Shown: positions 13,723 to 42,297 of the stretch, piece by piece
Numbering within the stretch: the first letter of the stretch is position 1
Layout: each line of letters starts with the position of its first letter
Origin: Bacilli bacterium
GTDB lineage: Bacteria; Bacillota_I; Bacilli_A; RF39; UBA660
DNA length: 49,749 bases
NCBI GenBank assembly: GCA_017462455.1
Contig: JAFTRC010000022.1
Location: 1 to 49,749, forward strand
Direction: 5' to 3'
Program-made: the position numbers and the translations under genes
Notes under the pieces: model-generated
What the model was told of the DNA's origin: nothing
Seen by the model: the letters and a program-made list of their open reading frames with translations, nothing else
Databases searched by the model: none

Positions 13723-13754
13723 TTTACCACCCAATATAATTATACCATATTTAC

Positions 13755-13781
13755 AAAAAAAAGAAAGTTTTTAACTTTCTT
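13755..13781 (-). terminator. Intrinsic terminator inside the glycan locus
   Basis: AAGAAAGTT-AAA-AACTTTCTT plus U-tract; followed by TG-G-TATAAT extended -10 for the next gene. Confidence 0.6.
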
Positions 13782-15048: not shown

Positions 15049-15059
15049 AATTATTCTCC

Positions 15060-18500: not shown

Positions 18501-18526
18501 TATATATAACCTCCATCATGTTTTTA

Positions 18527-19261: not shown

Positions 19262-19269
19262 ACTACCTC

Positions 19270-20085: not shown

Positions 20086-20149
20086 TACTATCGTCTCCTT
20101 AATCATCTTTATTAATTATATCAAATATGGTAATTCTTTACAAGAAAAT

Positions 20150-21094
20150 TCAAGAAATATGATATATTCTACAATAAAATTTTGTAAAGAATTTATTTTT
20201 TGATATTAATTGTTTAAAAAAGTTCATTTTATTAAAACATTCATTTGATTTATAATTAATAGTATTTTTTTCTATATATTCAAAAGCTTCATCTATAAAT
20301 TTATATCCTAATTTTAAATTTTTTTGATATTTTTGCAACAAACAATAATCTGTTAATTTTAATATAACTAATGAATCTAGACTTTTTTTTATGTATTTCT
20401 TATCTTTAAAATAATATAATAATTCATCAAAAGAAATAAATATATCAAATATTCTTTCATCCATAGTTGTTGTTTCACTATTCGCATGATGAGTAAAAAA
20501 ACACAATGATTCATTAACTTTACCTATTTTATTTGCCTTATCAAACAAAATTGATACTAATTTAAAATCTTCATATTTTATTCCCACAGGAAATTCTAAA
20601 CCATTAAATAATTCTCTTTTAAATAATTTGTTACAAGGGCCTAAATTTATATCAATTGATAAATTAGGAGTATCTTTTAATGTAGTATTGTTAAATTGAA
20701 TTAATTTATCTTCTCTTACAATATTATAATTAATAGAATCAACAGTATTATAATCACAAATTACAACATCTAAATTTTCGTCATGCATTTTTCTATACAT
20801 TTTTTCAAGCATATCTTCTTTTACATAATCATCACTATCTACAAAACAAATTGTTTCTCCGATACTCTTTTCTAAACCATAATTTCTAGCTATTGATATA
20901 CCCCTCTCTTTAGTTTTTAAATATTTAACTCTTTCATCTTTATAAGATTTTATTATAAGTGGGCTATCATCAGTTGAACCATTATCTATAAATAGAAATT
21001 CTGCATCTTTTAAAGTTTGACTTATCAAAGAATCTATACATTTTTTTATATATTTCGAAGAATTATAAACAGGTATTATAACACTTACTTTCAT
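20150..21094 (-). CDS. GT2 family glycosyltransferase
   Basis: VIIPVYN, DNGSTD, ARNYGL, FVDSDD. Confidence 0.92.
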   Translation of the reverse strand: MKVSVIIPVYNSSKYIKKCIDSLISQTLKDAEFLFIDNGSTDDSPLIIKSYKDERVKYLKTKERGISIARNYGLEKSIGETICFVDSDDYVKEDMLEKMYRKMHDENLDVVICDYNTVDSINYNIVREDKLIQFNNTTLKDTPNLSIDINLGPCNKLFKRELFNGLEFPVGIKYEDFKLVSILFDKANKIGKVNESLCFFTHHANSETTTMDERIFDIFISFDELLYYFKDKKYIKKSLDSLVILKLTDYCLLQKYQKNLKLGYKFIDEAFEYIEKNTINYKSNECFNKMNFFKQLISKNKFFTKFYCRIYHIS

Positions 21095-22005
21095 TTTATC
21101 ACCTTTAAATATAAACTTAGATTAAATTTCATCAACATTTTTTTTAATTTTCTAATGAAAGTATCTGTTAATATATTATCAAATACTTTCATTTCTTTTA
21201 GCTTATTTATATAAATCTCATAATCCTTTTTATTTAAAGCTTTTGCTTTCAAAATAACTGAATTAGCTATAAACGATAAATACGTTTTGCTTGCTTTTTT
21301 TGATTCAATTAAATAAGAATAGTGCTCCAATATATCAAATGCTTTCTTACATTCTTTATTATAATTAGAATTGTTCATTATACTATTATCTCTTTGTATA
21401 TAATTATATCCTACATACTCTATTGAAGTAACACTTTGTGATTCAATTATAATTCTAGGTATCAAGCCAAAATCTTCGTGATATAAACCTTCCTTAAAAA
21501 TATAATTATTATTGATATAAAATTTTCTTTTTATAGCATATAAACAAGCAAGTTCTACATACTTATAAGAAGATATTTTATTGAAAGCAGATTCTCCATT
21601 TAAATTTTTAAATGGAGACTCTAAATACGCTTTTTCTTTATCTTCATAAACAATATTTACCTGATACCTAATAAGTTCAGGATCATTTTTCACTTTACTT
21701 AGGTTAAATAATAAGTCCTTATTTAAATAATCATCGCTATCTAAAAATAATATATATTCTCCTTGAGCATTTTTTACGCCAATATTTCTAGCAACGCTTA
21801 ATCCCTTATTTTCTTGTTTTATATATTTTATATTGCCATATTTTTTTAAATAATCTTTTACTATTTTTTCTGAATTATCTTTCGAACCATCATTTACTAA
21901 AATAATTTCATAATCTTTAAGTGTTTGATTAATTACACTATCAATACATTTTTTCAAAAATTTTTCTGTATTATATATTGGAATAATGATACTATATTTT
22001 ATCAC
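21091..22005 (-). CDS. GT2 family glycosyltransferase
   Basis: IIIPIYN, NDGSKD, GLSVARN.G, FLDSDD, HEDFG. Confidence 0.92.
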   Translation of the reverse strand: MIKYSIIIPIYNTEKFLKKCIDSVINQTLKDYEIILVNDGSKDNSEKIVKDYLKKYGNIKYIKQENKGLSVARNIGVKNAQGEYILFLDSDDYLNKDLLFNLSKVKNDPELIRYQVNIVYEDKEKAYLESPFKNLNGESAFNKISSYKYVELACLYAIKRKFYINNNYIFKEGLYHEDFGLIPRIIIESQSVTSIEYVGYNYIQRDNSIMNNSNYNKECKKAFDILEHYSYLIESKKASKTYLSFIANSVILKAKALNKKDYEIYINKLKEMKVFDNILTDTFIRKLKKMLMKFNLSLYLKVIK

Positions 22006-24350
22006 TATATCACCTCATCAAATATTTTTTCTAAATTTCTCATTCTATTTGTATTTAACTTATTAAAATCTAATTTTTCTAATTTTAAATTATCATTAAC
22101 AACAATATCTTTTATTTGTTTTATCATAGTTTTTTCATTTTTTGAAACAATATATCCAAATCTATTTGGTATTGATATTTCATCATCACTAACATCAATT
22201 GTAGTAATTATTTTTTTATTTAGTACTATTGATTCTGGATACACTAAAGGAAAACCTTCATAGTCACTTGTAAGTATAATATAATCAGCTATTTTCATAT
22301 AAGGGTATGGATTTAATTTAAGCCCTAATAATTTAATATTTTTGTTTTTAATTAACTTCTCATATTTTTCTTTTTCTTCCCCGTCACCTATTATAAGAAG
22401 TTCAACATCTTTTAATTCATTAAATACATTTATTAAACGAGATACTTTTTTAGCTTCCTCTTCTAATCTACCAACAAATACAAAAGTTGTTTTATTGCTT
22501 TTAATATAATCTATTTTTTCATTAGATTTTTTTATTATTGCTTTATAATCAACTAAGTTATTTATAACGATACACTTATTTTTTAAATTTTTATAAACAT
22601 TTATAAAATCATCTTTAGCTTCATTAGATACAAATATAATTTTTCTATATTTATTTATTTTTCTACTATTGAAGAAATATTTAAATTCTTCTATATCTTT
22701 ATAAATTTGAGTATAATTACTATGAATAAATAAACTACAATTTTTACTAGCTAATTTAGAAAGTACATTTCCCGGATATGAATAAGTTGCATAACAAATA
22801 CTTGCATCATAAGTCATATAATTATTAAAAACAAACTTTATTCTTTTTAATATATTAGAAATTTTTCTTACTAATATATTTTTATTACAAGAAGTATTAT
22901 ATTCTATTATATTTACACATACAGGAACTTCATTTAATAATTCTCCACTCTTTGTTTCTAACATTAAATCTACATCATATTTATTATAATCAATATTTTT
23001 TAGTAACGTAATTAGTGCTTTTTCAATGCCACCTATTCTTAAATCATTAGCACAAAACAATATTCTTTTTTTATAATTACCATCAAAATATATTTTATAA
23101 GTAGAAGCTATTATTATTGCAGCTATTATACTAACAGATGGGGATGTTAATACATGGCCAGAAAATCCGCTCATTAATATAATCAAAATAAGAGATATCA
23201 AGTAAATTCCTGTATCTTTTATATGCTTATTTTTAAACCATCTCTTTACTATATTAAATAACAATACTATAAATGGAAAGAAATATATAATAAATCCCAT
23301 AATCCCATTCGCATAAAACACATCATAATAATCTATCTCAATTAACTTTTTATTAGTATCCACATTTTCATTTTCTCTAACAAACCCCACACCTATAAAT
23401 TTTTCTATAATATTAGAATTATCATAACTTTGTTTTATATTTTCTAAGAAAGTTATTCTATCGCTATATATAAATCTATCTATATTATTTGTATCTGTTA
23501 AAAGTTCACCAACACTCTCTATACCTAAAAAATTAAGATGTATATTTATATTTTTATAGAAGTTTGTTTTAGGTATAAATATTATACTTACTAAACCAAA
23601 TACAATAATAGCTGATAATAAAATTATTATTCTTTTTATTAAATTTATTTTTGATAAATATTTTAAGAAAAAATATAATAGACTTAAAAGCAAACAAATA
23701 ATTGGAACTTTAGTACCAATAAACAAGCATAAAATTGATACAAAAACAAATAATATTAAACTCATAAATTTGTTTTTCAAGTTAAATATATAATCTAATA
23801 CAAAAGGAATTAAAATTCCTATTATAGCACTTATATCACTAGCTGAATAAAATAAGCCACTACTACCTACTTTTCCTTCTAAATATGAATTAAATCCAAT
23901 TCCAAATATAATAGGAATAACTATTAAAATCACATATATAAAGAATATTTTAACTAAAATATTCTTATCAATAATTTTGTCTTTTTCTTTAAAAAGACAA
24001 AACATAAATACTAAAGTTATTGGAAAATACCAAAACTTAAATAAATTTATTAAATTATAAATTAAATTATTAAAATTAACAGAAAATAAATTATATAGTG
24101 AAAATATAAGTATATAGACAATTACAAACAAAAAATATATTATTGATTTCTTTTTATTTCTAAAAACAAATATCATGGAATAAATAGCAAAAAGCATAAA
24201 TAACATTTTTGTTATAATTCCTATACTAACAGTGCTTAAAAAAGAACGCGTTGTTATAGAAGTTATTAAATCAAAAATAGGTTGCAACAATATAAAGAGT
24301 GTTGTAATTTTAAATACATTTTTATTTATCCAATTATTTATTTTTTCCAT
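22005..24350 (-). CDS. Fusion of O-antigen ligase/polymerase-like membrane domain and GT4 glycosyltransferase
   Basis: Start moved to MEKINNW. Multi-TM N-half (G.FYSASDIS, IGTK, EIDYYD.F...G..G, SGHVL); C-half with GGIEKAL, FVGRL, EGFPLV..E. Confidence 0.75.
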   Translation of the reverse strand: MEKINNWINKNVFKITTLFILLQPIFDLITSITTRSFLSTVSIGIITKMLFMLFAIYSMIFVFRNKKKSIIYFLFVIVYILIFSLYNLFSVNFNNLIYNLINLFKFWYFPITLVFMFCLFKEKDKIIDKNILVKIFFIYVILIVIPIIFGIGFNSYLEGKVGSSGLFYSASDISAIIGILIPFVLDYIFNLKNKFMSLILFVFVSILCLFIGTKVPIICLLLSLLYFFLKYLSKINLIKRIIILLSAIIVFGLVSIIFIPKTNFYKNINIHLNFLGIESVGELLTDTNNIDRFIYSDRITFLENIKQSYDNSNIIEKFIGVGFVRENENVDTNKKLIEIDYYDVFYANGIMGFIIYFFPFIVLLFNIVKRWFKNKHIKDTGIYLISLILIILMSGFSGHVLTSPSVSIIAAIIIASTYKIYFDGNYKKRILFCANDLRIGGIEKALITLLKNIDYNKYDVDLMLETKSGELLNEVPVCVNIIEYNTSCNKNILVRKISNILKRIKFVFNNYMTYDASICYATYSYPGNVLSKLASKNCSLFIHSNYTQIYKDIEEFKYFFNSRKINKYRKIIFVSNEAKDDFINVYKNLKNKCIVINNLVDYKAIIKKSNEKIDYIKSNKTTFVFVGRLEEEAKKVSRLINVFNELKDVELLIIGDGEEKEKYEKLIKNKNIKLLGLKLNPYPYMKIADYIILTSDYEGFPLVYPESIVLNKKIITTIDVSDDEISIPNRFGYIVSKNEKTMIKQIKDIVVNDNLKLEKLDFNKLNTNRMRNLEKIFDEVI

Positions 24351-25395
24351 TCTTTTTTTCACACCTTGCTTTTTTTGAAAATAATATATCTGTTTTAAAT
24401 ACAAATATCATAAGCGCTATCATCAATATTCCATATATAGTGTATCCAATTTGATGATCTACTAATAACCAAATTATTGATGCAGCTGAGAATAAGGCAG
24501 TTATTAAATATATAATTAATACCGTAGTTTTAACACTGCAATTTTTTCTAAGTAATTGATGGTGAAAATGACTCTTATCAGGAGTACCTATACTCTCACC
24601 TTTTAATTTTCTTCTTATTATCGCACAAATAGTATCCAGTATTGGTACTATTAATATACAAAGTGGAATTATAATAGATGAAGTTATAATGCTCTTAAAA
24701 CCTAATAAAGTTATTACAGCTATTATAAATCCTAAAAACATAGATCCAGAATCTCCCATAAATATCTTCGCTGGGTTAAAATTGTGTACTAAGAAACCTA
24801 AAGTAGACCCAAACATAATAAAAGTTAAAATTACTGATAATCCAGTTCTTCCTTGACAATAAGCAATAATTCCTATAGTTAAAAAGAATATTGAACTAAT
24901 TCCTCCTGCAAGGCCATCAAGTCCATCTATTAAATTCAAACAATTTATACATCCTAAAATAAACAAAATTGTTATCGGATAAGCCCATATCCCAAAATTT
25001 ATATATATTCCAAAGAAACTAACATCTTTTAATAGTAATCCACCATAAAATACAACGATTAAAGCAGCTAATATTTGTCCTACTAACTTATGAGATGCTT
25101 TAAGAGGTTTTATATCATCAATTATTCCTGTTATAATTAATACAAAACTACCTATTAATATGGAATTCATAATTGTAGTATGTATCCCAAATATAATATA
25201 TCCAAGTAAAAAACCAGCATATATTCCAAGACCACCTAATCTTGGCATTGGTTTGTTATGAACCTTTCTTTTGTCAGGGATATCTAAAGCCCCTACATGC
25301 TCTGCTATTTTTTTTACAATTGGTATTATTGCAGTAACAAATACAAATGGTATAAAAATCATTAAAAGTATTGTTGTTATGTTTATATCCTTCAT
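24334..25395 (-). CDS. tagO: Undecaprenyl-phosphate GlcNAc-1-phosphate transferase (TagO/WecA)
   Basis: DIPDKRKVH.KPMPRLGG, GIIDD, NLIDGLDGLA, FMGDSGS, HFHH. Confidence 0.93.
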   Translation of the reverse strand: MKDINITTILLMIFIPFVFVTAIIPIVKKIAEHVGALDIPDKRKVHNKPMPRLGGLGIYAGFLLGYIIFGIHTTIMNSILIGSFVLIITGIIDDIKPLKASHKLVGQILAALIVVFYGGLLLKDVSFFGIYINFGIWAYPITILFILGCINCLNLIDGLDGLAGGISSIFFLTIGIIAYCQGRTGLSVILTFIMFGSTLGFLVHNFNPAKIFMGDSGSMFLGFIIAVITLLGFKSIITSSIIIPLCILIVPILDTICAIIRRKLKGESIGTPDKSHFHHQLLRKNCSVKTTVLIIYLITALFSAASIIWLLVDHQIGYTIYGILMIALMIFVFKTDILFSKKARCEKKNGKNK

Positions 25396-25533
25396 TTTAA
25401 TCACCTAGATTAATTATAACATATTTAAGATTATTTAGAAAGTTTTTACTTCTTATTTTGAGTATTTAGTCAATATTTGTCATCAAAACTTTATTTTTTT
25501 ATAAAAATAAGTTATAATTATTATGGTGATGAT

Positions 25534-29675: not shown

Positions 29676-30074
29676 CTACTTCAGACGCATATCTTCTTTT
29701 ATTTTTGAAGTTGATATACCTTCTGTCCTATCTAAGTATATTACTTCACAATATTTTTTTAAATATTCAAATTGTTCAGATCCGGCCCAATCACTTCCCA
29801 TGACAATAACATCTACTTTATATTTTTTAATGTCTAAAACTTTCTGATTCCATTTTTTTTCTGGTATAACCAAATCTACATATTTTATAGATTCTATCAT
29901 TTTTTTTCTTGTTTCATAATCATAATATGATTTTTTCCCTTTAATTTTATTAAATTCATCTGTAGATACAGCTACTATCAAATAATCACCCAAAGATTTA
30001 GCGCGTTGCAATAACCTTATATGACCATAATGTAATAAATCAAATGTTCCATACGTTAATATTCTTTTCATCAT
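29676..30074 (-). CDS. tagD: Glycerol-3-phosphate cytidylyltransferase (copy 1)
   Basis: TYGTFDLLHYGH, STDEFN, MGSDW, RTEGISTS. Confidence 0.95.
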   Translation of the reverse strand: MMKRILTYGTFDLLHYGHIRLLQRAKSLGDYLIVAVSTDEFNKIKGKKSYYDYETRKKMIESIKYVDLVIPEKKWNQKVLDIKKYKVDVIVMGSDWAGSEQFEYLKKYCEVIYLDRTEGISTSKIKEDMRLK

Positions 30075-31292: not shown

Positions 31293-32184
31293 TTAAATTT
31301 TAGATTTTTCTATTATTTTTTCTAAATATTCATTGTCCTCTATTTTATTTATTCCAAAACATTTCTTACCTAAACCTTTTAAACTAGTTGAAAATCTCCA
31401 GATGATATAAAGTATTATCAGCAATTATAAAGCGATTATGAAATATATTTCAATATTTTATTTTTAAATTAGAATATCGTTGATTAAATCTGTTTATATC
31501 TAATTTAGTTAAGTAATGACTACTAATTACTAAATCTACGCTTACATTTTCTTTTTTATATATAAGCATATCTAATATACTTTTATCTATATAATTATCT
31601 ATTATAATTATTCTATTATTAGCTTTTTTTATTAATTCAATTATCAAACTATATGAATCATAGATTTTTCCGTTAAAGAATATCTTTTGTTTCTCTACTC
31701 TTTTAGGTTCCAATCTATCAAATAATTCATCTATTTTATCTTTGCACTCAATCATTTCATACTCAACTGTAGTTAACCTTCTAAATATAGCTTTATTTTC
31801 ATTTATAAATTTTATCATTGCTACAAAAGTTCTCAATATTTTTACACTAACGCTAGCTGCATTTTCTGTTCTTAGTACAGTAGCTAACATTGCAACTCCT
31901 TCTTCCGTAAATACTTGAGGATTATATTTTGAATACTGATTTTGTTTTAATTCTAAGGTTCTAAAATGGAACCTTAGAAATTTTACTTCTTCTTCTATTA
32001 ATTGAAAATAAAAATCATCTGGAAATTTTTCTATATTTCTTTTAACTGCTTTAATAATATCCTTTGTTCCGTTTTTGCATCCATATAATATAACTAAATC
32101 AGAATCCAACATTACTTGTTTTCCTCATATTTCATAAATTAAATTTTCTATTTTTATTTCTTTTTTAATTATTACAGCGTTCAT
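31293..32184 (-). pseudogene. ORF6N-domain DNA-binding protein pseudogene
   Basis: SD GGAGG and ATG at 32184 give MNAVIIKKEIKIENLIYEI*GKQVMLDSDL (TGA at 32125-32127). Second TGA at 31450-31452 (KIKY*NIFHNRFII), then a frameshift before SLKGLGKKCFGINKIED. The ORF track shows only the middle fragment 31450-32112. Confidence 0.85.
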
Positions 32185-32243
32185 TGCATTCCTCCCTACT
32201 AATATTATATTGTAAAACTTTTTGATTTCCTTTTTTTATACAG

Positions 32244-32277
32244 AAAAAAGTAGAAAAAATTATTTTTTTCTACTTTT
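32244..32277 (-). terminator. AU-rich terminator after the acyltransferase fusion gene
   Basis: AAAAGTAGAAAAAA / TTTTTTCTACTTTT inverted repeat. Confidence 0.55.
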
Positions 32278-32283
32278 CATTTG

Positions 32284-35190
32284 CTATTCAAAACTTTTTA
32301 TTACAGCTTCACTATATAGTTTTACACCTAAAGTACTATTTGGATGAATAAAATCAACCATGTATAATGAAGTATCTTTATCTTCTAAAAATTCTCTAAT
32401 ATATATATTTGGATTAACAAAATAGTAGTTATTTTCTTCAGCATATTCTTTTAATGCATCGCTATACTCATCTAACATATTGTTTTTTGCTTCCTCATTT
32501 AATTTTGATACTGTATCATTCGATAAAGAAAACCATGGACTTATTAAAATTATTTTAGCTGATTTATTTGATTTTTTTATTAATTTAATTATTTTGGTAA
32601 TATTTTTTATGTATTCTTCTTTAGTCATAGAGCAAGTTTCTTTGTTACGATACCTAACATCATTAGTACCAAGTGCAATAAAATATAAATCGCTATCAGA
32701 ATTTAATATCTGTTCTTTGTAATCCGAATATATTAATTTAGTTGTATATCCACCTTTTGAAATATTAACTATAGTTTTATTATTAAAACTATTCATCAAT
32801 GGTTCATACCAAGGATAATAATCATTTTTTGTTCCTTCTGTAATACTATCCCCAATAAATGCTACTTTTTTACTATCGTTTATTAATTTATACAATTCAT
32901 TATCTTCATAATCATTTATCTCATCTAAAAACAAATAATCTTCAGTATAATAATTGTTATTTATAAAATAATATTTTTCTTTAACATGATCTACAGATAT
33001 TTCTTTATTTATCATAACTTTAGTAATTAATTTTTGAACTTTTTCAACTCTAGTTAATTCGTAAACAGATAATTCTTCATTTAACTCTTTATTAGTTATA
33101 ATATCATATATTGGAAGAGCTCTATAATAACCAGTTTTATATTCTTGAGTATACATTGGTACTATACTTGAACCAATCACTTCTTTTGTTTCTTTATCAA
33201 TATGAATATTTACTAAAGCTGTTGCATCACCATCATTACCAACATAAGAGTTGGCAAAATTTCCAGGACAATTTACAACAATTGTTTCATTTATATACTC
33301 AATAGGTTGAACAGCATGAGCATGATCTGAAAGAATTATATCTGCTCCTAAATTAGAAAATATTTGATTCCATTTATCTTGAAAATCATTGGTAGTATGT
33401 TTAAATTGAGTTCCCATATGAGCAAAAACCATTATTAAATCTGCTCCTGTTTCTTTTGCTTCAACAAAATCATCTTTAATTTCTTGATATATTTCATCAT
33501 AATAAGGGTTACTTGTATAAGGAATGTAAGAGGTAATATGAGAATTGGTTTCGTATAAAGAATTTATTTTATAACCATTAACTGAACTCAGATATGATAA
33601 GACAGCTACTTTTACGCCTTCTATTTCAACTACAATAACATCTTTCTCTTCTTTTTCCTCCTGATTACGATATGAACCTGTATTTGTAATTTCTAATTCA
33701 TCTAACACATCAAGAGTCCTATAAGCCCCTTTAATACCAGTATCTAACAAATGATTATTAGCAGTTGTTACTAAATCAATTCCAGAATTTTTAATTGCTT
33801 CGGCAAATTCATCTGGATAATTAAGCATTAATTTTAAACCATCTCCGTAATTGCTTGTAGAATATGAAATTCTATCTCCTGCCATTGGACCTTCGAGTAC
33901 ACCTACAGCTAAATCTGCAGCTTTTAAATAAGTAGATGCATATTCAAACATATCGTTAAAATCATAACTATCAGTTTCTTCATTATATGCAGAAGTAACC
34001 TGATCTTTTAATAAAATTAAATCTCCTACATATGAAATTGTAAGTGAATCATCTAAATAATTTTTTAAATCTTCGTCTAACACCTTTATAGTTTCAGTAG
34101 TTGGATATATTGGTTCCTCATTAATTTTATTTACAATAGTTTTTAAAGGATTATATATTAGTACTAATATAGGAATTGCAAATATTGCAATTCTTAAAAT
34201 ATCGCTTACTCTATCCGTACCACTTACTATTCTTTCAGATATACTATTAAATAATTTAGATACGGAATTATTTATTTTTTCGCCTCCAAAAATAATTATA
34301 GTTATTACAGTAGCAATTAAAGAAAATAAAAGATATATAATACTATAATCATTTACCGGAAAAACACAAACAAATAAAATTGTTATAAAACGATGGAATA
34401 AATAAATTAATAATGAATTTCTACCTATTTTTGTTAATATCGGTATTTTTTTATTTGGAACTATTAAAAATGAAATTCCTATCATTATTGCAGATATCAC
34501 AAATATGATTATTCTGTAAATAATATCTTGTGGATTTTTATATGAACCCATTAAAAGCATTTTTTCTGTTATTGTATTATTTCTTATATATAATATTAAC
34601 AATATAGAAAAACTTACTAACAAACAAAATCCTAATAAATAATGTTTGTAGTTTCTCTTTTTTAGGAACGACTCAACTTTTTCTTTAGAAAATTTATATC
34701 CTATTAAGAAAAACGGAAAAAATGCGATTGTTCTTCTTATAGAAAGAATATTACCAAATGATGACCAATAACCAATAAGTAAAGATAAAATAATTGATAT
34801 TGGTATTATTCCTTTTACTTTTGATACTTTCTTTATACACAATCTCCAACAAATGAGTGATAATATATACCAATACGAATTATATGGATTTAAAATGCTA
34901 ATACTCGTTCCTTTTAGAAAATATAAGAAGAACATCATAGCAGTATTAAAAAATAAATAATAAAGCAAAAGTTTTATTAATGATTTAGAACTATCAGAAT
35001 TTTCTGATTTACTAAAATAACCTGATGCAAATATAAAAGCCGGCATATGAAAAGTATAAATAAAAACTACAATATCATTTACCAAACTTCCTATGTTATT
35101 AGATGAATAAGAATAAAGAAAATGACTGAATACTACTAAAAATATTAATATTCCTTTATAATTATCCCAAAATAAATTACGTTTTTTCAT
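32284..35190 (-). CDS. Acyltransferase-3 + CapA (PGA_cap) + SGNH hydrolase three-domain fusion
   Basis: WDNYKGILIFLVVFSH...FHMPAFIFASGY (AT3); VGDL, TANNH, AHMG, DHAH, PGNF (CapA metallophosphoesterase-like); FIGDSIT, GTND, DFIHPN (SGNH). Start moved to MKKRNLF. Confidence 0.85.
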   Translation of the reverse strand: MKKRNLFWDNYKGILIFLVVFSHFLYSYSSNNIGSLVNDIVVFIYTFHMPAFIFASGYFSKSENSDSSKSLIKLLLYYLFFNTAMMFFLYFLKGTSISILNPYNSYWYILSLICWRLCIKKVSKVKGIIPISIILSLLIGYWSSFGNILSIRRTIAFFPFFLIGYKFSKEKVESFLKKRNYKHYLLGFCLLVSFSILLILYIRNNTITEKMLLMGSYKNPQDIIYRIIIFVISAIMIGISFLIVPNKKIPILTKIGRNSLLIYLFHRFITILFVCVFPVNDYSIIYLLFSLIATVITIIIFGGEKINNSVSKLFNSISERIVSGTDRVSDILRIAIFAIPILVLIYNPLKTIVNKINEEPIYPTTETIKVLDEDLKNYLDDSLTISYVGDLILLKDQVTSAYNEETDSYDFNDMFEYASTYLKAADLAVGVLEGPMAGDRISYSTSNYGDGLKLMLNYPDEFAEAIKNSGIDLVTTANNHLLDTGIKGAYRTLDVLDELEITNTGSYRNQEEKEEKDVIVVEIEGVKVAVLSYLSSVNGYKINSLYETNSHITSYIPYTSNPYYDEIYQEIKDDFVEAKETGADLIMVFAHMGTQFKHTTNDFQDKWNQIFSNLGADIILSDHAHAVQPIEYINETIVVNCPGNFANSYVGNDGDATALVNIHIDKETKEVIGSSIVPMYTQEYKTGYYRALPIYDIITNKELNEELSVYELTRVEKVQKLITKVMINKEISVDHVKEKYYFINNNYYTEDYLFLDEINDYEDNELYKLINDSKKVAFIGDSITEGTKNDYYPWYEPLMNSFNNKTIVNISKGGYTTKLIYSDYKEQILNSDSDLYFIALGTNDVRYRNKETCSMTKEEYIKNITKIIKLIKKSNKSAKIILISPWFSLSNDTVSKLNEEAKNNMLDEYSDALKEYAEENNYYFVNPNIYIREFLEDKDTSLYMVDFIHPNSTLGVKLYSEAVIKSFE

Positions 35191-35222
35191 AGTACCTCCC
35201 ATTCAATTTATATATAATAAGA

Positions 35223-35244
35223 AAGTAATGTCTAGACATTACTT
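35223..35244. other. Perfect 22-bp palindrome AAGTAATGTCTAGACATTACTT (terminator/processing hairpin or operator)
   Basis: Exactly self-complementary; overlaps the stop codon of the ATP-grasp gene, ~40 bp upstream of the next SD. Confidence 0.6.
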
Positions 35245-36420
35245 ATATTTTAATTCTTCCCATCTTGGTTTCAAACCGCCATTACAAACTTGAATTCCTT
35301 TGAAAGAATAATTCCAATTTATTTCAACAATAACTGGACCAGTTTCAGTTATTGCTATATCCCAACCTATTGTAGCGAATCCAAAAATAATTGGGTGTAA
35401 ATTTTTAATTAATTCAACGGTTTCTTTCCAATATGGGATTTGATAATTGTTATATACTAGACCAGTTACTGGATGACTAGTAGTTCTTGGCTTATTGTAA
35501 AAATATCCATATTTATCTAATTTACCAGTATTCGTATTGATTGCTATAAATGTTCCTCCTGCATCAGCATTATCAACCACTTGCCCCTTTTTAGCTCCTA
35601 CCCTTATCATAGCAGCTAAAATATGAGTTTTTTCATTCCATCTAGTAGATATAATTCTTAAAGTATTAACTGTTTCATCATTTATTTTATTTATATCCGC
35701 ATGTTGTTTTAAAAACTCTTGAACAAGAAAAGGTTTTTGTATACTACTTTTTATTAAATCTGAAAGAGTAACTTCTTTATTACTTAATTTAATACTGTTA
35801 CCTTTTTTAGTAAGAGCCACTATCATATCTCCATGCGAACCTACTGTAGGTTTGCAAATATATTTTCCATCTGGTAAATTTTTGAATGCAACTCTTGTAT
35901 TTGAATATTTTTCATAAGGAGCAATAACTTTATTGCCTGAAAATGTAAATACAGTATTAGGAATATTATTTGGAAACATACTTCCTACATATGAATAAAA
36001 TACACTTTTGTCGTCTGCAATAATTGAATATCTGTCATTAACATTCGCTTTTCTAACTTTTACTAATGGGTGCTTTTTATGATGAACCATAGCCCTGTCT
36101 TTTTTTACATAGCCAAAATCCAAATAATCATCCATACTTCTAAAATTTTTTATATCTAATCCAAATCTATTATAAAAAAGATTTACTCTATGATATTTAA
36201 AATACCATTTAAAATTATCAAATAGTCTTGTTAAATATTTTTTTCTTTTCATTTCAGGATAAAAAGTCTTTTCACTAGATACCATGAAACACCTAAAAAT
36301 ATTAAATAAAAAACTTCCTCTTAATGATTTTCTTACCTTGCTTGGTAATGTTCTTTGATAAACTTCTTTTATATGATCATATCTCATTTGATCTTCATCT
36401 GAATATACAAAACTTGCCAT
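35239..36420 (-). CDS. Sugar-transfer-associated ATP-grasp protein (ATPgrasp_ST), paralog 1
   Basis: DDKSVF, KPTVGSHG, VQEFLKQH, VNTLRI, DNADAGG, IPYW, GWDIAITETGPVIVEINW. Confidence 0.85.
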   Translation of the reverse strand: MASFVYSDEDQMRYDHIKEVYQRTLPSKVRKSLRGSFLFNIFRCFMVSSEKTFYPEMKRKKYLTRLFDNFKWYFKYHRVNLFYNRFGLDIKNFRSMDDYLDFGYVKKDRAMVHHKKHPLVKVRKANVNDRYSIIADDKSVFYSYVGSMFPNNIPNTVFTFSGNKVIAPYEKYSNTRVAFKNLPDGKYICKPTVGSHGDMIVALTKKGNSIKLSNKEVTLSDLIKSSIQKPFLVQEFLKQHADINKINDETVNTLRIISTRWNEKTHILAAMIRVGAKKGQVVDNADAGGTFIAINTNTGKLDKYGYFYNKPRTTSHPVTGLVYNNYQIPYWKETVELIKNLHPIIFGFATIGWDIAITETGPVIVEINWNYSFKGIQVCNGGLKPRWEELKYK

Positions 36421-36504
36421 ACTAATTCTTCTTTCTATTTCTCCGTATTATTTCAATGCGATAATATTTTATCATTTTTGTTTAATTATTTCAATACCTA
36501 TATT

Positions 36505-38046
36505 TTATAAGTATTTATCTATCATAGTAGATTTTAGACCTTTGTTTTGCATAGATTTAGCTAATTGAACAACATAATAGGCTCCAGTGTTTCCTTCAAT
36601 TAAATCTATACCATTTTCAGTAATAGCAAAATCCCAGCCAATTAATTTAGAACCTTCCACTACAAAAGCAATTTCATTACATAATTTAACTATTTGATCC
36701 CAATTAGGTATATGAAAACCTTTAATTTTTTTATTAGTCATAGGACTTCTTTTATGAATATTATTATTCACATCAATCGCATGAGTATCTACAATTCCAG
36801 TTTTAACATCAACATTAGCAGCTACCCCATTAGCATGAAAATTATCAACAACATCACCATTTCCAATTCTAAATAAAGAACTTACTAATTCACATTTACC
36901 ATTATGTACTATTGTTGTTACTCTCACTGTATTAACAGAGGTTGGACAAAATTCTAACATTTCCTTGCTTTGAACAATATACTGTTCAATAATGGCTTTA
37001 CCAATAGACATTATAAATTCATAAGTTTTCTTATCATTTTTTTCACTTATATTACATTCAAAACATTTTATTCCTACCCCGCAAGTAGAAGATAAAGGCT
37101 TAACGATTATTTTTTTCAATCCTTTAATTTCCTTTTTAAATGCTTCGAATGTTAAATTATCATTTGTAAACCAACGACGCTTAATGTAATCTTTAAAAAC
37201 TTTGTTGAAATTTGATTTTATATCAAAATTATCACGAGTTGAATAATATTCATTGTATTTATTTCTAAGTCTGTCAAAGTTTTTTAAAGTTACATAAGAT
37301 GCCTGTTTTCTTGGACTTTTCTTGTAAAATTTAAAACCTAGATAATCTTCATAGCTACATTCTGATACTGATTTAGCTTTTCTTGTTTCAAATTCAACTT
37401 TTTCTATACTCCATTTAGTTTTTTCACATATTCGTTTTATATATTCTTTTGTATTTTTCCTTATTCTTTTCTTATCCGCTTTTAAGAAATTCGCAATTGA
37501 TTCAATATTTTCTGATTTATAAGCGCCTTTAGAAACAAAATGCTTATAATCAATTCCTTTTTCCTTAGCTTCATCCATTTCTTTTTTTGCTTTTTCCATA
37601 GACCAACCAGTAACTTTTTGAGCTAATTCCAAATAAAATTCATCATTCATTTTTTCTATTTCTTTACATTTTCTTAAATATCCGAGATATTCATCAAATT
37701 TTTTTGAGCTTAATAAATATAAATTTCTATCAAAATAAGTTTTATCAGTTATACCATATTTGTTTACCAAAAATTTTCTAGCAACTATTTCTTCTTTTAA
37801 TATTCCTGTTTTTAGTTTAATTAAATGTAATTCGCTATCTTGTTTTTCAATATAATCATTTATTTTATTATTTAAATCAACTATTTCTTCTTCAGATAAT
37901 TCCCAGGCTCTATTTAAAAGGAATCGCTTATATTTCATGCCATTTTTTCTTGCAAATCTTAATTTTGTTTCTATAACTTCTTTTTCTAAACCACATTTTT
38001 TAATAATCATTTTTTTACTTTTACTCTTTTTTAATTTTTTCTTCAT
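36505..38046 (-). CDS. Sugar-transfer-associated ATP-grasp protein, paralog 2, with repeated N-terminal module
   Basis: KSNFNKVF, VKPLSSTCGVG, EQYIVQ, SVNTVRV, VDNFHANG, IPNW, GWDFAITENG..LIEGN. Confidence 0.85.
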   Translation of the reverse strand: MKKKLKKSKSKKMIIKKCGLEKEVIETKLRFARKNGMKYKRFLLNRAWELSEEEIVDLNNKINDYIEKQDSELHLIKLKTGILKEEIVARKFLVNKYGITDKTYFDRNLYLLSSKKFDEYLGYLRKCKEIEKMNDEFYLELAQKVTGWSMEKAKKEMDEAKEKGIDYKHFVSKGAYKSENIESIANFLKADKKRIRKNTKEYIKRICEKTKWSIEKVEFETRKAKSVSECSYEDYLGFKFYKKSPRKQASYVTLKNFDRLRNKYNEYYSTRDNFDIKSNFNKVFKDYIKRRWFTNDNLTFEAFKKEIKGLKKIIVKPLSSTCGVGIKCFECNISEKNDKKTYEFIMSIGKAIIEQYIVQSKEMLEFCPTSVNTVRVTTIVHNGKCELVSSLFRIGNGDVVDNFHANGVAANVDVKTGIVDTHAIDVNNNIHKRSPMTNKKIKGFHIPNWDQIVKLCNEIAFVVEGSKLIGWDFAITENGIDLIEGNTGAYYVVQLAKSMQNKGLKSTMIDKYL

Positions 38047-38064
38047 ACTACACTTCCTCTACTT

Positions 38065-39117
38065 CTACTTAATTATACCATGCTCTTTGTAAAATTTACC
38101 CAACTTTTTATTTCTTTGTCCACCCCATATTTGAATAATATTCACTCCTGATGATGTATTAGCTTCAATCAATGATGTCCCACTATCTGTAACTAATATA
38201 TCCCAAGCAACGAAATTAAAATAAGGGTATTTTTCCATCACTTTAGTATATGTTTCTTTGATTTTTTTCCAATTTGGAATTTTCACCCCTTTTATTATTT
38301 TATTTGAATCAGGATGTATGTCATATTTTTCATTAGTTTGAATCGTTCTAGCTTCACTAAGTTCTCCTGTTTCTAAATCTATCTTAGAAACAAATCCACC
38401 CTTTGAACCATTATCAACCGGTATAGAGGATTTTCTACCAATGCGCTGTACAGCATATAAGACTTCACATTTTTTTGTTTCTGCATTTCTAACTGTTATT
38501 AAACGTATTGTATTTGTTGTATATTCATAAATATCATCTAAATATTTTGCTTGTTTTATATAATCTGAAATAAACCAATTATCTTTTCTCTTTAATAAAT
38601 TTATTATCTCAGATTCAGATATTACCATATTATTAATTTTTATTTCTTTAGTATTATATTCTATTTTATATATATCCGAACCCTTTCCTTTACTTATAGG
38701 TTTCATAATAAAAGATTGTTTATTTTTTAATAACTTTATTATATCTTTATATGTCTTTATATTCCCGCTTGAATATATTTTTTTACCTTTTTTAAAACAA
38801 TATACTTTTGGAATATCTAAATCATTTTTAAACAAATCAGAGCAAACTACCTTGTTGTTAAGCAAAAAACTATAATTACCATTTATATATCTAGATTTAT
38901 ACCAATCAAATTCTGATAAATAATTTTTTTTGTTTTTATGATTTAAATTATATATAACAATTTGATCGGCCATAAAACCGCCAAATATTGCATAATATAT
39001 TCTTTTGAATATATTAACCTTGAAATGAGATTTTGCAAACAAAATATTAACTATCCAAATTACAGATAACTTAATAAACTTAGTAAATCCATCATAAATA
39101 TTTTTTAATTTATTCAT
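38065..39117 (-). CDS. Sugar-transfer-associated ATP-grasp protein, paralog 3
   Basis: NNKVV, KPISKGKG, TTNTIRL, VDNGSKGG, IPNW, AWDILVTDSG..LIEAN. Confidence 0.85.
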   Translation of the reverse strand: MNKLKNIYDGFTKFIKLSVIWIVNILFAKSHFKVNIFKRIYYAIFGGFMADQIVIYNLNHKNKKNYLSEFDWYKSRYINGNYSFLLNNKVVCSDLFKNDLDIPKVYCFKKGKKIYSSGNIKTYKDIIKLLKNKQSFIMKPISKGKGSDIYKIEYNTKEIKINNMVISESEIINLLKRKDNWFISDYIKQAKYLDDIYEYTTNTIRLITVRNAETKKCEVLYAVQRIGRKSSIPVDNGSKGGFVSKIDLETGELSEARTIQTNEKYDIHPDSNKIIKGVKIPNWKKIKETYTKVMEKYPYFNFVAWDILVTDSGTSLIEANTSSGVNIIQIWGGQRNKKLGKFYKEHGIIK

Positions 39118-39123
39118 TTATTT

Positions 39124-40230
39124 CTACCTCATCTTATCTATTATAAATTCTACTATCTTGTTTGTTGCATCTTCAAAATTTTTAGGTAAATACTTCTTTT
39201 TATAAGTTTTAAAACTTTCAATGTCATATTCACCACTTTGTAAATTTTTTACTAATTTTTTACCATCTTTAAAGGTAAGTTTTGGAAATTCTTTAAATGT
39301 ATCCAAATTCAATCCATTACTTTTTATATAATCTTCATAATCATATAAATAATAATATGTTTTTTTATTTATAGCTGCAGCTTCAACTGCCAATGAAGAA
39401 TAATCTGTAATAAAATAATCACAAATAGTTAATAATTCATAAATGTTAATTTTTAATTTTGAACTTGTATATATATTTGGATTATCAATATTTAATTGAT
39501 GTTTTGGATGTGAAGTAATTATTAAAATATATTTATCATAATCTATATTTTTTATCAAATCTTCAGTACTACTTTTTTTACTTACTCTAAATGTTGGCGA
39601 ATATAATATTACTTGTTTAGTTTTTAATTCCGGATATCTTCTATATATTTTCTTTTGAATTTCTTTTAAGTTGTTATGTATATATGCAGCTCTGGGTAAT
39701 CCAATATTCCATAATTTATCTTCACTTATATTAAAGGACTCTGTATATGCATGATTCCAAGCTTTAGCACCCGCTACTACAATATCATAATTTTTATGCA
39801 TATCAAGAAGTAAAGCCATTTTTTTGCTCCTACCATCTGGTTTATCAAGAGTTTGATATCCAGATTGTTTTATTTTACCCATAGCATGCCATATTTGTAT
39901 TATAGTTAAACTTTTTTTATGTTTTAAAATACTGACAGGTAAAGAATATGAATCTATTACACATACCTTTGAAGTAGCTAAATGATACATGCTACTTAAA
40001 ATATTGGTTACAAAACTAAATTTTAAACCTTTTGTGCTTTCTACTCTTTGACAAATTGTAACTATTTTATAATTTTCTTCTTCTAAACCTTCAATAATCA
40101 ATCTGAAATCTAAAGGCACTCTATTAGATTGTCTAGATAAAAACAACACTTTATTTTGTGTTTTATTTAGTTTCATAAATAAATAAATAAATTTTAAAAA
40201 TAATTTTCCTATTTTAATGATTAATGTCAT
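39124..40230 (-). CDS. CDP-glycerol/ribitol phosphotransferase (TagB/TagF family)
   Basis: IQIWHAMGKIK..G, GLPR, YSPTFR, HP, ITDYSS. Confidence 0.88.
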   Translation of the reverse strand: MTLIIKIGKLFLKFIYLFMKLNKTQNKVLFLSRQSNRVPLDFRLIIEGLEEENYKIVTICQRVESTKGLKFSFVTNILSSMYHLATSKVCVIDSYSLPVSILKHKKSLTIIQIWHAMGKIKQSGYQTLDKPDGRSKKMALLLDMHKNYDIVVAGAKAWNHAYTESFNISEDKLWNIGLPRAAYIHNNLKEIQKKIYRRYPELKTKQVILYSPTFRVSKKSSTEDLIKNIDYDKYILIITSHPKHQLNIDNPNIYTSSKLKINIYELLTICDYFITDYSSLAVEAAAINKKTYYYLYDYEDYIKSNGLNLDTFKEFPKLTFKDGKKLVKNLQSGEYDIESFKTYKKKYLPKNFEDATNKIVEFIIDKMR

Positions 40231-40648
40231 ACTTCTCTCTCATTTCTGGATCTTTGTTTAAATATTCTCTTATTTTTGTTGATGAATAAGGTAAAGTTTT
40301 AGGTGTTTTATCTAAATAAATTACTTCACAATATTCTTTAAGGTAATCATATTTACCTTGCCAATCAGAAAAACTTACTAAAATATCTATATTATACTTT
40401 AATATATCATCTTTTTTTTGTTCGAAACTTTTTTGTTCGAATGTCTCATCTACATATTTTATAGATTGTACCATTTCTTTTCTTATTTCATACGGATAAA
40501 AAGCTCTTTTATTCTTTTTGTTTTCATTAAAATCATCACTACTTACACCCACGATTAAATAATCTCCCATTTCTTTTGCACGCCTTAAATAATCTAGGTG
40601 GCCGTAGTGTAAAATATCAAAAGTTCCATAAGTTAGTACTCTTTTCAT
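40214..40648 (-). CDS. tagD: Glycerol-3-phosphate cytidylyltransferase-like (copy 2)
   Basis: Start moved to MKRVLTYGTFDILHYGH; SSDDFN, SSTKIR. Confidence 0.88.
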   Translation of the reverse strand: MKRVLTYGTFDILHYGHLDYLRRAKEMGDYLIVGVSSDDFNENKKNKRAFYPYEIRKEMVQSIKYVDETFEQKSFEQKKDDILKYNIDILVSFSDWQGKYDYLKEYCEVIYLDKTPKTLPYSSTKIREYLNKDPEMREKYDINH

Positions 40649-40649
40649 T

Positions 40650-41417
40650 TTATACCACTTCTCCCATTTCTGCTTTATATTTAGAAATAATTTCTTTAGG
40701 ATTTCCTTTATCAACAACTACACCCTCATTTATCCATAGTACTTCATCACACAATTCTTGTACAGTTGCTAAACTATGTGAAACTATAATAACTGTTCTT
40801 TTATCAGAAGATATAAGTTCTTTCATTTTGTTATAACTTTTTGTTTTAAATTTAACATCTCCTACAGATAGCACTTCATCTATCAGCATAATATCTGTTT
40901 CTAAAATAGCAGTAATTGCAAAAGCTAATTTAGAATACATTCCTGAAGAATAAGTTTTAACAGGTTTATCTATAAATTTACCAATATCAGCAAACTCAAC
41001 TATTTCTTTTTCTTTTTCTGATATTTGTTTTTCAGAAAAACCTAATAACATTCCAGATAAATATATGTTTTCTCTACCAGTCAATTTTTTATTAAATCCA
41101 ACACCTATTGATAATAAAGAGATGCTATTACCATGAAGATTTATTGAACCTTTATCCGGAGAAAATATTCCAGCTACAGCACGCAATAAAGTACTTTTTC
41201 CAGCACCATTTTGCCCAATTATGCCTAATATTTTACCTTCTTCAATTTCAAAACTAATACCTTTTAAAGCTTTATGTATTTCTACTTTGTCTCTAAATTT
41301 CATAAATGATTCTTTTATAGAAGTTTTTTTCAAGCCTTTATAATATATGTGCAAATTTTTTACAGTAACAGCTATTTTCTTCTTTGAAGTTGTCTTTGTA
41401 TTTTCCTTCTTTTTCAT
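40650..41417 (-). CDS. tagH: Teichoic-acid-type ABC exporter ATPase
   Basis: GQNGAGKST, YSSGMYSKL, LIDEVLSVGD. Confidence 0.88.
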   Translation of the reverse strand: MKKKENTKTTSKKKIAVTVKNLHIYYKGLKKTSIKESFMKFRDKVEIHKALKGISFEIEEGKILGIIGQNGAGKSTLLRAVAGIFSPDKGSINLHGNSISLLSIGVGFNKKLTGRENIYLSGMLLGFSEKQISEKEKEIVEFADIGKFIDKPVKTYSSGMYSKLAFAITAILETDIMLIDEVLSVGDVKFKTKSYNKMKELISSDKRTVIIVSHSLATVQELCDEVLWINEGVVVDKGNPKEIISKYKAEMGEVV

Positions 41418-42199
41418 TATATCACCTTCGCATAAGTATTTTCATTTTTATGGATAATTCTAACTCCAATCATACATAGTATTATTCCTATTATTAACCA
41501 AAATAATAATCCTTCAATGCTTACCATTTTACCTTCTAACATACATTTTCTAGCTTCATCCATAAGAAAGGCAGCCGGATTCAATCGTAATAAGAAAAAG
41601 CCTATAGCGCCACCTATTTTAGTTCTAAGGTTATAAAATACTCCCGATACATAAAATAGCATTCTAAGACCTATATGAGTAAAATTTAATAAATCACTAA
41701 ACTTAACACCATAGTTCATAAGTATCATTCCTATCCCAAAAGATAGAATATATAGAACTATTAACACTGGAATAATTAATAATATATGCCATGTTATTGT
41801 TACACCTTGAATAAGCATTAAAACGAATACTATTAAAAATGAAATACCAAACTTAAATAAAAACGTAAATGACTTTGATAGTAATAATATATATTTTGGT
41901 ATATATACCTTGGTAACCAAATCCCTGTTTCCAGCTATAAGTCTAACACTTCCTGTAATCATTCTGTTAAAAAATTGCCATACAGTAAGACCTATATATA
42001 TAAATGAAGCATAATAAGGTTCATTATGTTTAAATATATATCCAAATACAAACACATATATAAGCATAAAACATAATGGTTCAATTATCCACCATAACCA
42101 ATTTAGATAAGAATCTGAAACTTCACTTTTTAATTCAGCTTTAGCTGCTCTAATCGCATATCTATAATATTTTTTTATATTACCGAAAAATTTCTTCAT
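41417..42199 (-). CDS. tagG: Teichoic-acid-type ABC-2 permease
   Basis: AELKSEVSDSYLNWLWWIIEP, FYVSGVFY, LNP. Confidence 0.88.
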   Translation of the reverse strand: MKKFFGNIKKYYRYAIRAAKAELKSEVSDSYLNWLWWIIEPLCFMLIYVFVFGYIFKHNEPYYASFIYIGLTVWQFFNRMITGSVRLIAGNRDLVTKVYIPKYILLLSKSFTFLFKFGISFLIVFVLMLIQGVTITWHILLIIPVLIVLYILSFGIGMILMNYGVKFSDLLNFTHIGLRMLFYVSGVFYNLRTKIGGAIGFFLLRLNPAAFLMDEARKCMLEGKMVSIEGLLFWLIIGIILCMIGVRIIHKNENTYAKVI

Positions 42200-42297
42200 A
42201 TAACCACCATAACCATTATATCATATATTTCTTTAATAAAGAAATAAAATGTCGAATATTTGCCTTAAAAATTAGTTTATTGACAAAAAAAATAGAA

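Follow-up and report, generated by a model that had tools for sequence, protein, structure and literature searches.

Teichoic acids set the surface charge of gram-positive bacteria and govern phage adsorption, autolysin control, resistance to cationic peptides, and recognition by the host. To our knowledge, the Dlt system is the only established way to put amino acids on these polymers. ATP-grasp ligases have been connected to other surface polymers. The C-terminal domain of Cj1438 (Cj1438C), which acts in the HS:2 capsule pathway of Campylobacter jejuni, activates the C6 carboxylate of glucuronic acid (GlcA) and adds serinol phosphate or ethanolamine phosphate (PMC11800379); it is the only biochemically studied relative found in the literature. 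In Halalkalibacterium (Bacillus) halodurans C-125, the wall polymer teichuronopeptide, consisting of poly-γ-L-glutamate and polyglucuronate, needs a gene of the ATP-grasp family (TupA, PMC8153356). A tie of the ATPgrasp_ST family (PF14397) to surface-polymer genes was already predicted at the time of the family's definition (Iyer et al. 2009, cited in PMC4431377, where teichuronopeptides and O-antigen are named among the products of the linked ligases). As this tie is also contained in the Pfam family name, the idea itself is not new; what would be new is a demonstration. Literature searches yielded no experimental work on any PF14397 member or on a locus combining TagF with an ATP-grasp ligase. 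Here, we describe an operon of a Bacilli bacterium in which teichoic acid (tag)-type genes are followed by three ATPgrasp_ST ligase genes (AG1, AG2, and AG3). It lies in a stretch of 49,749 nucleotides (the window; contig JAFTRC010000022.1 of assembly GCA_017462455.1) that has a G+C content of ~24% and carries nearly all of its genes on the minus strand. The assembly is a metagenome-assembled genome (MAG) of 1.21 Mb in 68 contigs that is 82% complete.

The eight genes of the operon (Table 1) run from 42199 down to 32284 on the minus strand with intergenic gaps of -17 to 84 nt, and their open reading frames (ORFs) lie exactly at the positions, and in the order, that the initial annotation had given. 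Domain calls were obtained with Pfam and NCBIfam models, for which the equivalog cut-offs are quoted per model. An intrinsic terminator hairpin is found directly 3' of the last gene, which encodes a fusion of AT3, PGA_cap, and SGNH domains; the standard terminator scan missed this AT-rich hairpin, which was found by direct folding. A promoter scan was uninformative in DNA of 24% G+C (100 sites vs 109 expected). We give a probability of roughly one half to the reading that these genes form a nearly self-contained route to a teichoic-acid-type wall polymer bearing amino acids or a short peptide. The initial annotation had proposed that the ligases decorate a polyol-phosphate polymer exported by an ABC transporter, and the sequence evidence supports this proposal, with the catalytic residues of the ligases retained and the tag and ligase genes inherited together.

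Table 1. Coordinates of the operon, of the island that contains it, and of related genes in the window
Feature	Position (nt)	Strand	Evidence
TagG-like ABC-2 permease	41417-42199	-	PF01061 (ABC2_membrane), 34.3 bits vs cut-off 26.9
TagH-like ABC ATPase, nucleotide-binding domain only, 255 aa	40650-41417	-	PF00005 (ABC_tran); NF010065, E 1.4e-66
TagD-like cytidylyltransferase	ORF 40214-40717, likely 40214-40648	-	CTP_transf_like; TIGR01518, E 1.6e-41
TagB/TagF-like polyol-phosphate transferase, 368 aa	39124-40230	-	PF04464 (Glyphos_transf), 142.1 bits vs 22.1, E 3e-41
AG1, ATPgrasp_ST, 350 aa	38065-39117	-	PF14397, 152.3 bits vs cut-off 31.4
AG2, ATPgrasp_ST, 513 aa	36505-38046	-	PF14397, 135.0 bits, residues 272-497
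AG3, ATPgrasp_ST, 393 aa	35239-36420	-	PF14397, 151.9 bits vs cut-off 31.4
AT3 + PGA_cap + SGNH fusion, 972 aa	32284-35202	-	PF01757, PF09587, PF13472 (Lipase_GDSL_2)
Intrinsic terminator of the operon	32243-32280	-	15-bp hairpin + U-tract, -14.4 kcal/mol, z = -6.2
Accessory island, ~10 kb, between ORF6N/ylbD and mtaB	~32241-42282		Junction comparison with congeners (G021 and G025)
WecA/TagO-like phospho-GlcNAc transferase outside the island	24334-25404	-	PF00953, 140 bits
Canonical TagD outside the island	29676-30074	-	TIGR01518, 184.4 bits vs cut-off 165.4

The operon coordinates delimit a real accessory island, a clean insertion of ~10 kb that lies in the T-tract behind mtaB, immediately before the promoter of ORF6N. 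In same-genus genomes, ylbD, (ORF6N), and mtaB are adjacent with none of the eight genes in between. Likewise, none of the eight island genes stands beside mtaB, an upstream gene that is core in the genus, in the eight same-genus genomes examined; five or six of these show, whole or in part, the order tagO-orf227-cadherin-like-dockerin protein-rsmD-ylbD-(ORF6N)-mtaB. The island is present in 1 of 27 genomes of the genus. An ATPgrasp_ST gene occurs in 1 of 26 same-genus genomes, as a different copy next to tagO, and the triple-fusion protein is absent from 22 same-genus genomes. The G+C content of the island is no different from that of its flanks, and its closest named relatives are uncultured gut “Bacilli bacterium” MAGs. 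Because the island proteins are only 49-75% identical to their best relatives, the island is not a recent transfer from any sampled genome.

AG1, AG2, and AG3 share 22-28% identity with one another, but identity rises to 59-75% between each ligase and its orthologues from two other loci; judged by sequence, the trio did not arise by recent tandem duplication. The nucleotide and Mg motifs of ATP-grasp enzymes are retained in every one of them: in the nine sequences compared (AG1, AG2, AG3, and orthologues from two other loci), K139-P140, the hinge residue Q189, N202-T203-x-R205, R225-x-G227, V234-D235-N236, W305-D306, and E318-x-N320 (AG1 numbering) are invariant. The AlphaFold (AF2) models of AG1 and AG2 are confident (pLDDT 85.5 and 80.6, respectively), and their top Foldseek matches are all ATP-grasp ligases with a probability of 1.00. 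The nearest folds are RimK and LysX for AG1 and Ddl, VanA, and RimK for AG2, and the neighbors overall comprise RimK, LysX/ArgX, PsnB, Ddl, and VanA at TM-scores of 0.25-0.53 and identities of 9-15%. Fold models and motifs together indicate that AG1 and AG2, although distant, are true ATP-grasp ligases. In the PDB, searches with the AG1 and AG3 sequences returned no useful relative, and PF14305 (TupA-like) has no match in AG1, AG2, or AG3 at E ≤ 0.01. AG2 residues 1-265 (nt 37252-38046) are modeled as four three-helix repeats of ~60 aa that precede the ATP-grasp core and carry the approximate motif TGWS-x-E-x-A...GI-x4-Y...LY-x-LS-x-EE. This N-terminal repeat has no Pfam match, and the AG2 fold search gave ATP-grasp hits only; AG2-type repeats also precede the cores of several other ATPgrasp_ST subfamilies, including those at L049:3069-5900 and L072:14051-15373 (L numbers denote loci in other genomes).

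Hundreds of metagenomic homologues of AG1 are found at 46-79% identity, and a scan with one genome per species identified an AG1 orthologue or relative in 238 species, from which 80 loci were fetched. The hosts of the AG1 locus include Oscillospiraceae, Lachnospiraceae, Eubacterium, Anaerovoracaceae, small-genome Bacilli, Coriobacteriales, and one Microbacterium. A gene-neighborhood comparison, suggested as a check by the initial annotation, gives TagF-like, TagG-like, and TagH-like genes as recurrent partners of ATPgrasp_ST. Of the 76 loci with sufficient sequence, 61 have a TagF-like gene adjoining the AG1 orthologue; among all 80 loci, a TagH-like gene is found in 57-58 and a TagG-like gene in 56. 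Unsupervised clustering of the neighboring ORFs recovered the same core cassette. The modal number of ligases per locus is three (32 of the 48 loci that have 5 kb or more on each side). Directly 3' of AG1, 66 of the 80 loci encode a protein of ~199 aa (for example, L087:2245-2844) that matches NTP_transf_3/IspD weakly, and above threshold in Microbacterium; its place is occupied by TagD in the window and in L113, and by sequence the family probably represents a divergent cytidylyltransferase. A three-gene core consisting of the transferase, AG1, and the small nucleotidyltransferase is found in 60-68 of the 80 loci. The full eight-gene set recurs in two other genomes: in the same order in L113, where genes for LCP and a PBP follow, and rearranged in L029, with tagO and an LCP gene nearby. 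L115 combines the ligase trio with TarI, TarJ, and a TarL-like polymerase in a locus of the ribitol type, and LCP genes are found within or beside 11 loci. Pairwise distances of AG1 correlate with those of its partners (r = 0.95 for the TagF-like protein, 0.90 for the nucleotidyltransferase, 0.94 for TagG, and 0.86 for TagH), which fits a cassette.

The ligases are not equally conserved. A tree and distance clustering of 193 ligase domains place AG1 in a single orthologous clade with one member per locus in all 82 loci, and the AG2 and AG3 subtypes occur in four and five loci, respectively. A midpoint-root split of the tree was discarded, as it put 149 sequences with AG1; distance clustering resolved the subtypes. 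Compared with the initial description of three tandem paralogs, one conserved ligase (AG1) with two rare, swappable ones is the better account. The commonest partner ligases are ATPgrasp_ST proteins of 670-770 aa with a degenerate N-terminal copy; an assignment of these proteins as TupA-like was rejected on the basis of their Pfam composition (ATPgrasp_ST plus the degenerate copy). Other partners are a TupA-like domain, stand-alone in L114 and fused to ATPgrasp_ST in L049, a true alanine racemase in the sister locus L112, and, in 17 loci, acyl-CoA-ligase-like enzymes. L030 and L062 encode MurF-like ligases that end in an LRR_5 tail, and the fusions there have the form MurF-like ligase-LRR_5(-ATPgrasp_ST); in such ligase loci, LRR_5 seems to serve as an intracellular scaffold. 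This partner pattern would be expected if AG1 carries out a shared first step on what the TagF-like enzyme makes and the other ligases create lineage-specific variation.

In its export and polyol-phosphate logic, the operon is akin to the classical Tag/Tar pathway. A two-component ABC exporter of the TagG/TagH type is present, with orthologues of the permease in L029 and L032 that are 61-63% identical and TagH models that match at E 1.4e-66 and 3e-53, below their equivalog cut-offs. The ORF of the TagD-like protein is open from a TTG at 40717 inside tagH; the domain starts just past the ATG at 40648, which is likely the true start on sequence grounds. This protein contains the HxGH motif and scores 141.3 bits with TIGR01518 (equivalog cut-off 165.4). 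The TagB/F-like transferase has the TarB primase as its best NCBIfam match (136 bits, below cut-off) and aligns to the TarL structure 8va1 at E 1.4e-17, including the WHAxG, PTFR, HP, and DYSS..E stretches. The transferase carries a hydrophobic N-terminal helix and AG1 a hydrophobic or amphipathic one, which suggests that both work at the membrane.

The last gene of the operon encodes a protein in which a PGA_cap domain (residues 388-652) is placed between an AT3 domain (PF01757, 72.2 bits) and an SGNH domain (PF13472, 78.4 bits). Hydropathy predicts ~11 membrane segments followed by an acidic C-terminal part of 620 residues, and in the OafA/OatA family the domains that follow AT3 are placed outside the membrane. 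Based on hydropathy and this likeness, we infer that PGA_cap and SGNH of the fusion are located outside as well. The catalytic blocks of SGNH are intact (G784-D785-S786, N847, and DxxH). A search with the single PGA_cap sequence failed to reach the peptide epimerase MslH, but a six-sequence profile aligned N483-H484..D487 with N87-H88..D91 and H629 with H295 of MslH (8gq9); D394, E437, and H595, which are invariant in the fusion family, are counterparts of MslH D11, E44, and H259 by motif order only. The catalytic His/Asp dyads of MslH are H88/D91 and H295/D11, and mutagenesis shows that the MslH residues reached by the profile alignment are needed in Ca-dependent peptide epimerization (PMC10406935). 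PgsA, the protein on which the PGA_cap family was founded, is needed for D-Glu in poly-γ-glutamate, with a D/L ratio of 75/25 in the presence and 5/95 in the absence of pgsA (PMC6029982). The fusion reaches 20.4 bits with the MslH equivalog NF038314 (cut-off 700). Its architecture is found in more than 100 clusters at 90% identity, at 54-67% identity, and it travels with the ligases in L029, in L113, and here, where it belongs to the insertion. Of 43 multi-ligase loci, 14 contain PGA_cap genes; five single-ligase loci contain none. Separately, most genomes of the genus carry stand-alone PGA_cap paralogs of ~380-420 aa that are ~30% identical to the fusion domain. These are frequently arranged as two genes in tandem (for example, G000:C31:60230-62351), and several second copies contain many internal stops.

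As the initial annotation had stated, no glycosyltransferase or dlt gene is found among the domain calls of the eight operon genes; this needs to be complemented by a separate glycan cluster with glycosyltransferases in the same window (10112-25404, minus strand). That cluster encodes a WecA/TagO-like GT4, an O-antigen-ligase-like/GT1 fusion (799 aa), three GT2s, an ABC-2 exporter pair, MnaA, an amine-oxidase-like flavoprotein, a GT1, an Alg14/Alg13-like pair, and a polysaccharide deacetylase. Its tagO end is conserved in the genus: the WecA/TagO-like gene is a core gene, 81% identical in congeners, and its product (TIGR02380 153 bits, below cut-off) is the probable lipid-carrier priming enzyme. 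A canonical tagD sits between the dockerin protein gene and rsmD; an annotation as coaD, suggested by its position after rsmD, was rejected, as TIGR01518 identifies it as tagD. It has no match at the syntenic site in eight same-genus genomes and is apparently a second strain-specific teichoic-acid-related insertion, whose product is a possible source of CDP-glycerol for the island or for Glyphos_transf genes located on other contigs. Three such genes encode proteins of 802, 595, and 403 aa (including G000:C38:18614-22269 and C26:5664-6749), so that the island is not the organism's sole teichoic-type pathway. DltB (MBOAT, PF03062) has no match in the 82%-complete assembly. Next to the island, an in-frame stretch of 19 codons upstream of the ORF6N gene (31450-32112, minus strand) ends in a TGA at 32125-32127. 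The same-genus orthologue in L125 has an AGA (Arg) at this site, inside a conserved IYE(V/I)RGKQVMLD motif, and the ORF6N gene of the window is therefore N-terminally truncated or a pseudogene.

In the proposed pathway, the core WecA/TagO-like enzyme would prime undecaprenyl phosphate, the TagD-like enzyme would make a CDP-polyol, probably CDP-glycerol, and the membrane-associated TagB/F-like enzyme would add at least one polyol-phosphate unit. AG1 would then use ATP to form an acyl-phosphate and join a first amino acid to the polyol-phosphate unit. Probably, the amino acid's own carboxylate is activated, yielding an ester as in VanA or PsnB chemistry, which is the simplest solution because glycerol phosphate is without a carboxylate; VanA and PsnB illustrate that ester formation is possible with the ATP-grasp fold. 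AG2 and AG3, the lineage-variable ligases, would extend or diversify the product by amide bonds before TagGH flips the lipid-linked product outward. Outside, the PGA_cap domain of the fusion would act as a metal-dependent epimerase converting L- to D-residues, the AT3/SGNH pair would O-acylate the polymer, and an LCP enzyme would probably attach it to peptidoglycan. As for the residues, the RimK-like hits, the PGA_cap domain, and the teichuronopeptide precedent hint at a glutamate type, and the racemase and MurF-like ligase of sister loci together with the Ddl-like folds hint at an alanine type.

A number of points weigh against this pathway. ATP-grasp enzymes of the RimK/LysX type usually activate a carboxylate of the acceptor, a group that glycerol phosphate lacks. 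Because the in-operon TagD-like protein scores below the equivalog cut-off, the donor may be something other than CDP-glycerol, and the TagB-like enzyme with its 368 aa may add one unit only. TagA/WecG (PF03808) has no match in the 82%-complete assembly, and neither has LCP; the latter is probably an assembly gap, since 21 of 24 same-genus genomes possess LCP. The distance correlations between AG1 and its partners would also result from a shared species history. In other genomes, the fusion gene is often found by itself amid housekeeping genes, so that its product may act on another substrate. Moreover, a 1258-aa protein of Microbacterium sp. YY-04 composed of ATPgrasp_ST, LRR_5 (BspA-type), and PGA_cap (L093:11612-15388, plus strand) and a PGA_cap-LRR protein in L112 are without a membrane segment. 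From these sequences, it appears that PGA_cap acts on either side of the membrane in different systems and that its side is not uniform.

The proposed pathway can be extended, tentatively and with clearly lower confidence, to a Dlt-independent wall polymer in gut Firmicutes and some actinobacteria that would be the second to bear peptides, next to peptidoglycan. AG1 would form the ester, swappable ATP-grasp ligases (MurF-like ligases in some loci) would extend it to a short strain-specific peptide, PGA_cap would perform the conversion to D-residues without a racemase, and the cassette would be mobile like an O-antigen locus.

Among the alternatives, a peptide polymer survives best, although we regard it as rather doubtful. 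Here, one glycerol phosphate, placed on the lipid carrier by the TagB-like enzyme, would serve as primer, the ATP-grasp ligases would polymerize an oligo- or poly-amino-acid chain akin to teichuronopeptide or poly-glutamate in a manner similar to RimK or cyanophycin synthetase, TagGH would export the chain, and PGA_cap would epimerize it. The short transferase with its TarB primase match is consistent with such a primer, and the structural neighbors of the ligases include the poly-Glu maker RimK and cyanophycin synthetase. Furthermore, all three ligases weakly match the NCBIfam model “alpha-L-glutamate ligase-like”, and PGA_cap is the domain of the poly-glutamate protein PgsA/CapA (PMC6029982). 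However, the operon contains neither PgsB, nor PgsC, nor any Mur-ligase-like gene (the Mur ligase of L030 is MurF-like, not PgsB-like), three different ligases with variable partners fit a stepwise addition better than a homopolymer, and the ligase trio also occurs in L115 with a full TarL-type ribitol polymerase.

Assembly at the precursor level is unlikely. In this scheme, AG1, perhaps with AG2 and AG3, would load a soluble phosphorylated handle before its activation with CMP, and the TagF-like enzyme would transfer the loaded unit, possibly onto a polymer made elsewhere. The recurrent core of transferase, AG1, and small nucleotidyltransferase would fit such a scheme, as would a divergent TagD in the operon with a canonical one elsewhere and the three Glyphos_transf genes on other contigs, two of them long. 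Yet the island has its own exporter, the N-terminal helices of AG1 and of the transferase suggest work at the membrane, and the L029 transferase, which is 64% identical, is paired with a different nucleotidyltransferase family, suggesting an ordinary donor.

Quite improbable is the amidation of a carboxylate on a glycan from the neighboring cluster, an explanation drawn by analogy with Cj1438C. Biochemical work has established that GlcA of a capsule is amidated by a TupA-like ATP-grasp (PMC11800379), L049 encodes a fusion of TupA-like and ATPgrasp_ST domains, and the glycan cluster lies 7 kb away. Against this, UDP-sugar 6-dehydrogenase (PF03721) has no match above cut-off in the 82%-complete assembly, and the absence of a source of uronic acid argues against amidation of an acidic sugar; the neighboring cluster is core in the genus and the ligases are not, and AG1 tracks the TagF-like gene rather than glycosyltransferases. 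That the ligases modify peptidoglycan precursors (side-chain or cross-bridge residues, like D-aspartate ligases) and are merely co-located with tag genes is scarcely credible: MurF-like, MurT, and alanine racemase genes are found in some sister loci and Ddl is among the nearest folds, but MurT and ThrRS have the look of neighboring housekeeping genes, the ligases adjoin TagF-like and TagGH genes closely and in many loci, and the island is absent from congeners that presumably have the same wall chemistry.

We return to the reading of an amino-acid- or peptide-bearing teichoic-acid-type polymer and to what it would mean. The cassette is found in at least 238 species, mostly uncultured Firmicutes of gut and rumen, and would aminoacylate with soluble ATP-grasp ligases prior to export, and it could build peptides instead of adding single residues. 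If true, the wall polymer would represent a new class, the PGA_cap epimerase-like domain would have gained a new use, and some of the variation that the surfaces of gut bacteria show at strain level would be explained. The model is directly testable because three cultured isolates carry sister loci: Anaerostipes sp. 992a (L106), Lachnospiraceae bacterium XBB1006 (L072), and Microbacterium sp. YY-04 (L093).

As underlined by the comparison with known systems, the island is not a Dlt, PgsBCA, or TupA system. It resembles DltABCD in its proposed outcome, amino-acid esters on a polyol-phosphate polymer, but Dlt relies on an adenylating enzyme, a carrier protein, and an MBOAT protein and acts outside, whereas the ligases of the island are soluble and would act inside before export. 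With teichuronopeptide, it shares the proposed combination of a peptide part and a non-peptide acidic chain; the ligases do not match the TupA family, however, and the proposed backbone is polyol phosphate and not polyglucuronate. Like Cj1438C, which modifies the growing polymer in the cytoplasm, they are ATP-driven ATP-grasp ligases in a surface-polymer locus, yet they belong to PF14397 instead of PF14305, and no uronic-acid source was found in the assembly. RimK, LysX/ArgX, Ddl/VanA, and PsnB are the nearest solved folds and contain the same ATP and Mg motifs, but the N-terminal substrate regions of the island ligases are unrelated to theirs.

The fusion protein shares the PGA_cap fold with PgsA/CapA and MslH, including the N-H-x-x-D dyad and the later His that align with the MslH catalytic residues, and differs from them in that the domain sits between AT3 and SGNH. 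As in OatA/OafA, its AT3 membrane domain is followed by an additional helix and by an SGNH domain whose catalytic triad is intact, but OatA/OafA do not contain the PGA_cap module of ~320-400 aa inserted between the two domains. Finally, the wall teichoic acid pathway of Bacillus subtilis and Staphylococcus aureus is matched by a TagD-like enzyme, a TagB/F-like enzyme, and a TagGH-type exporter in one operon, by the WecA/TagO-like gene nearby, and by LCP in the genus and beside sister operons. Unlike that pathway, the island has no TagA and a single, short phosphotransferase, and the assembly has no dlt; most sister loci have a small MobA/IspD-like nucleotidyltransferase instead of TagD, and the island adds three ATP-grasp ligases and the AT3-PGA_cap-SGNH protein.

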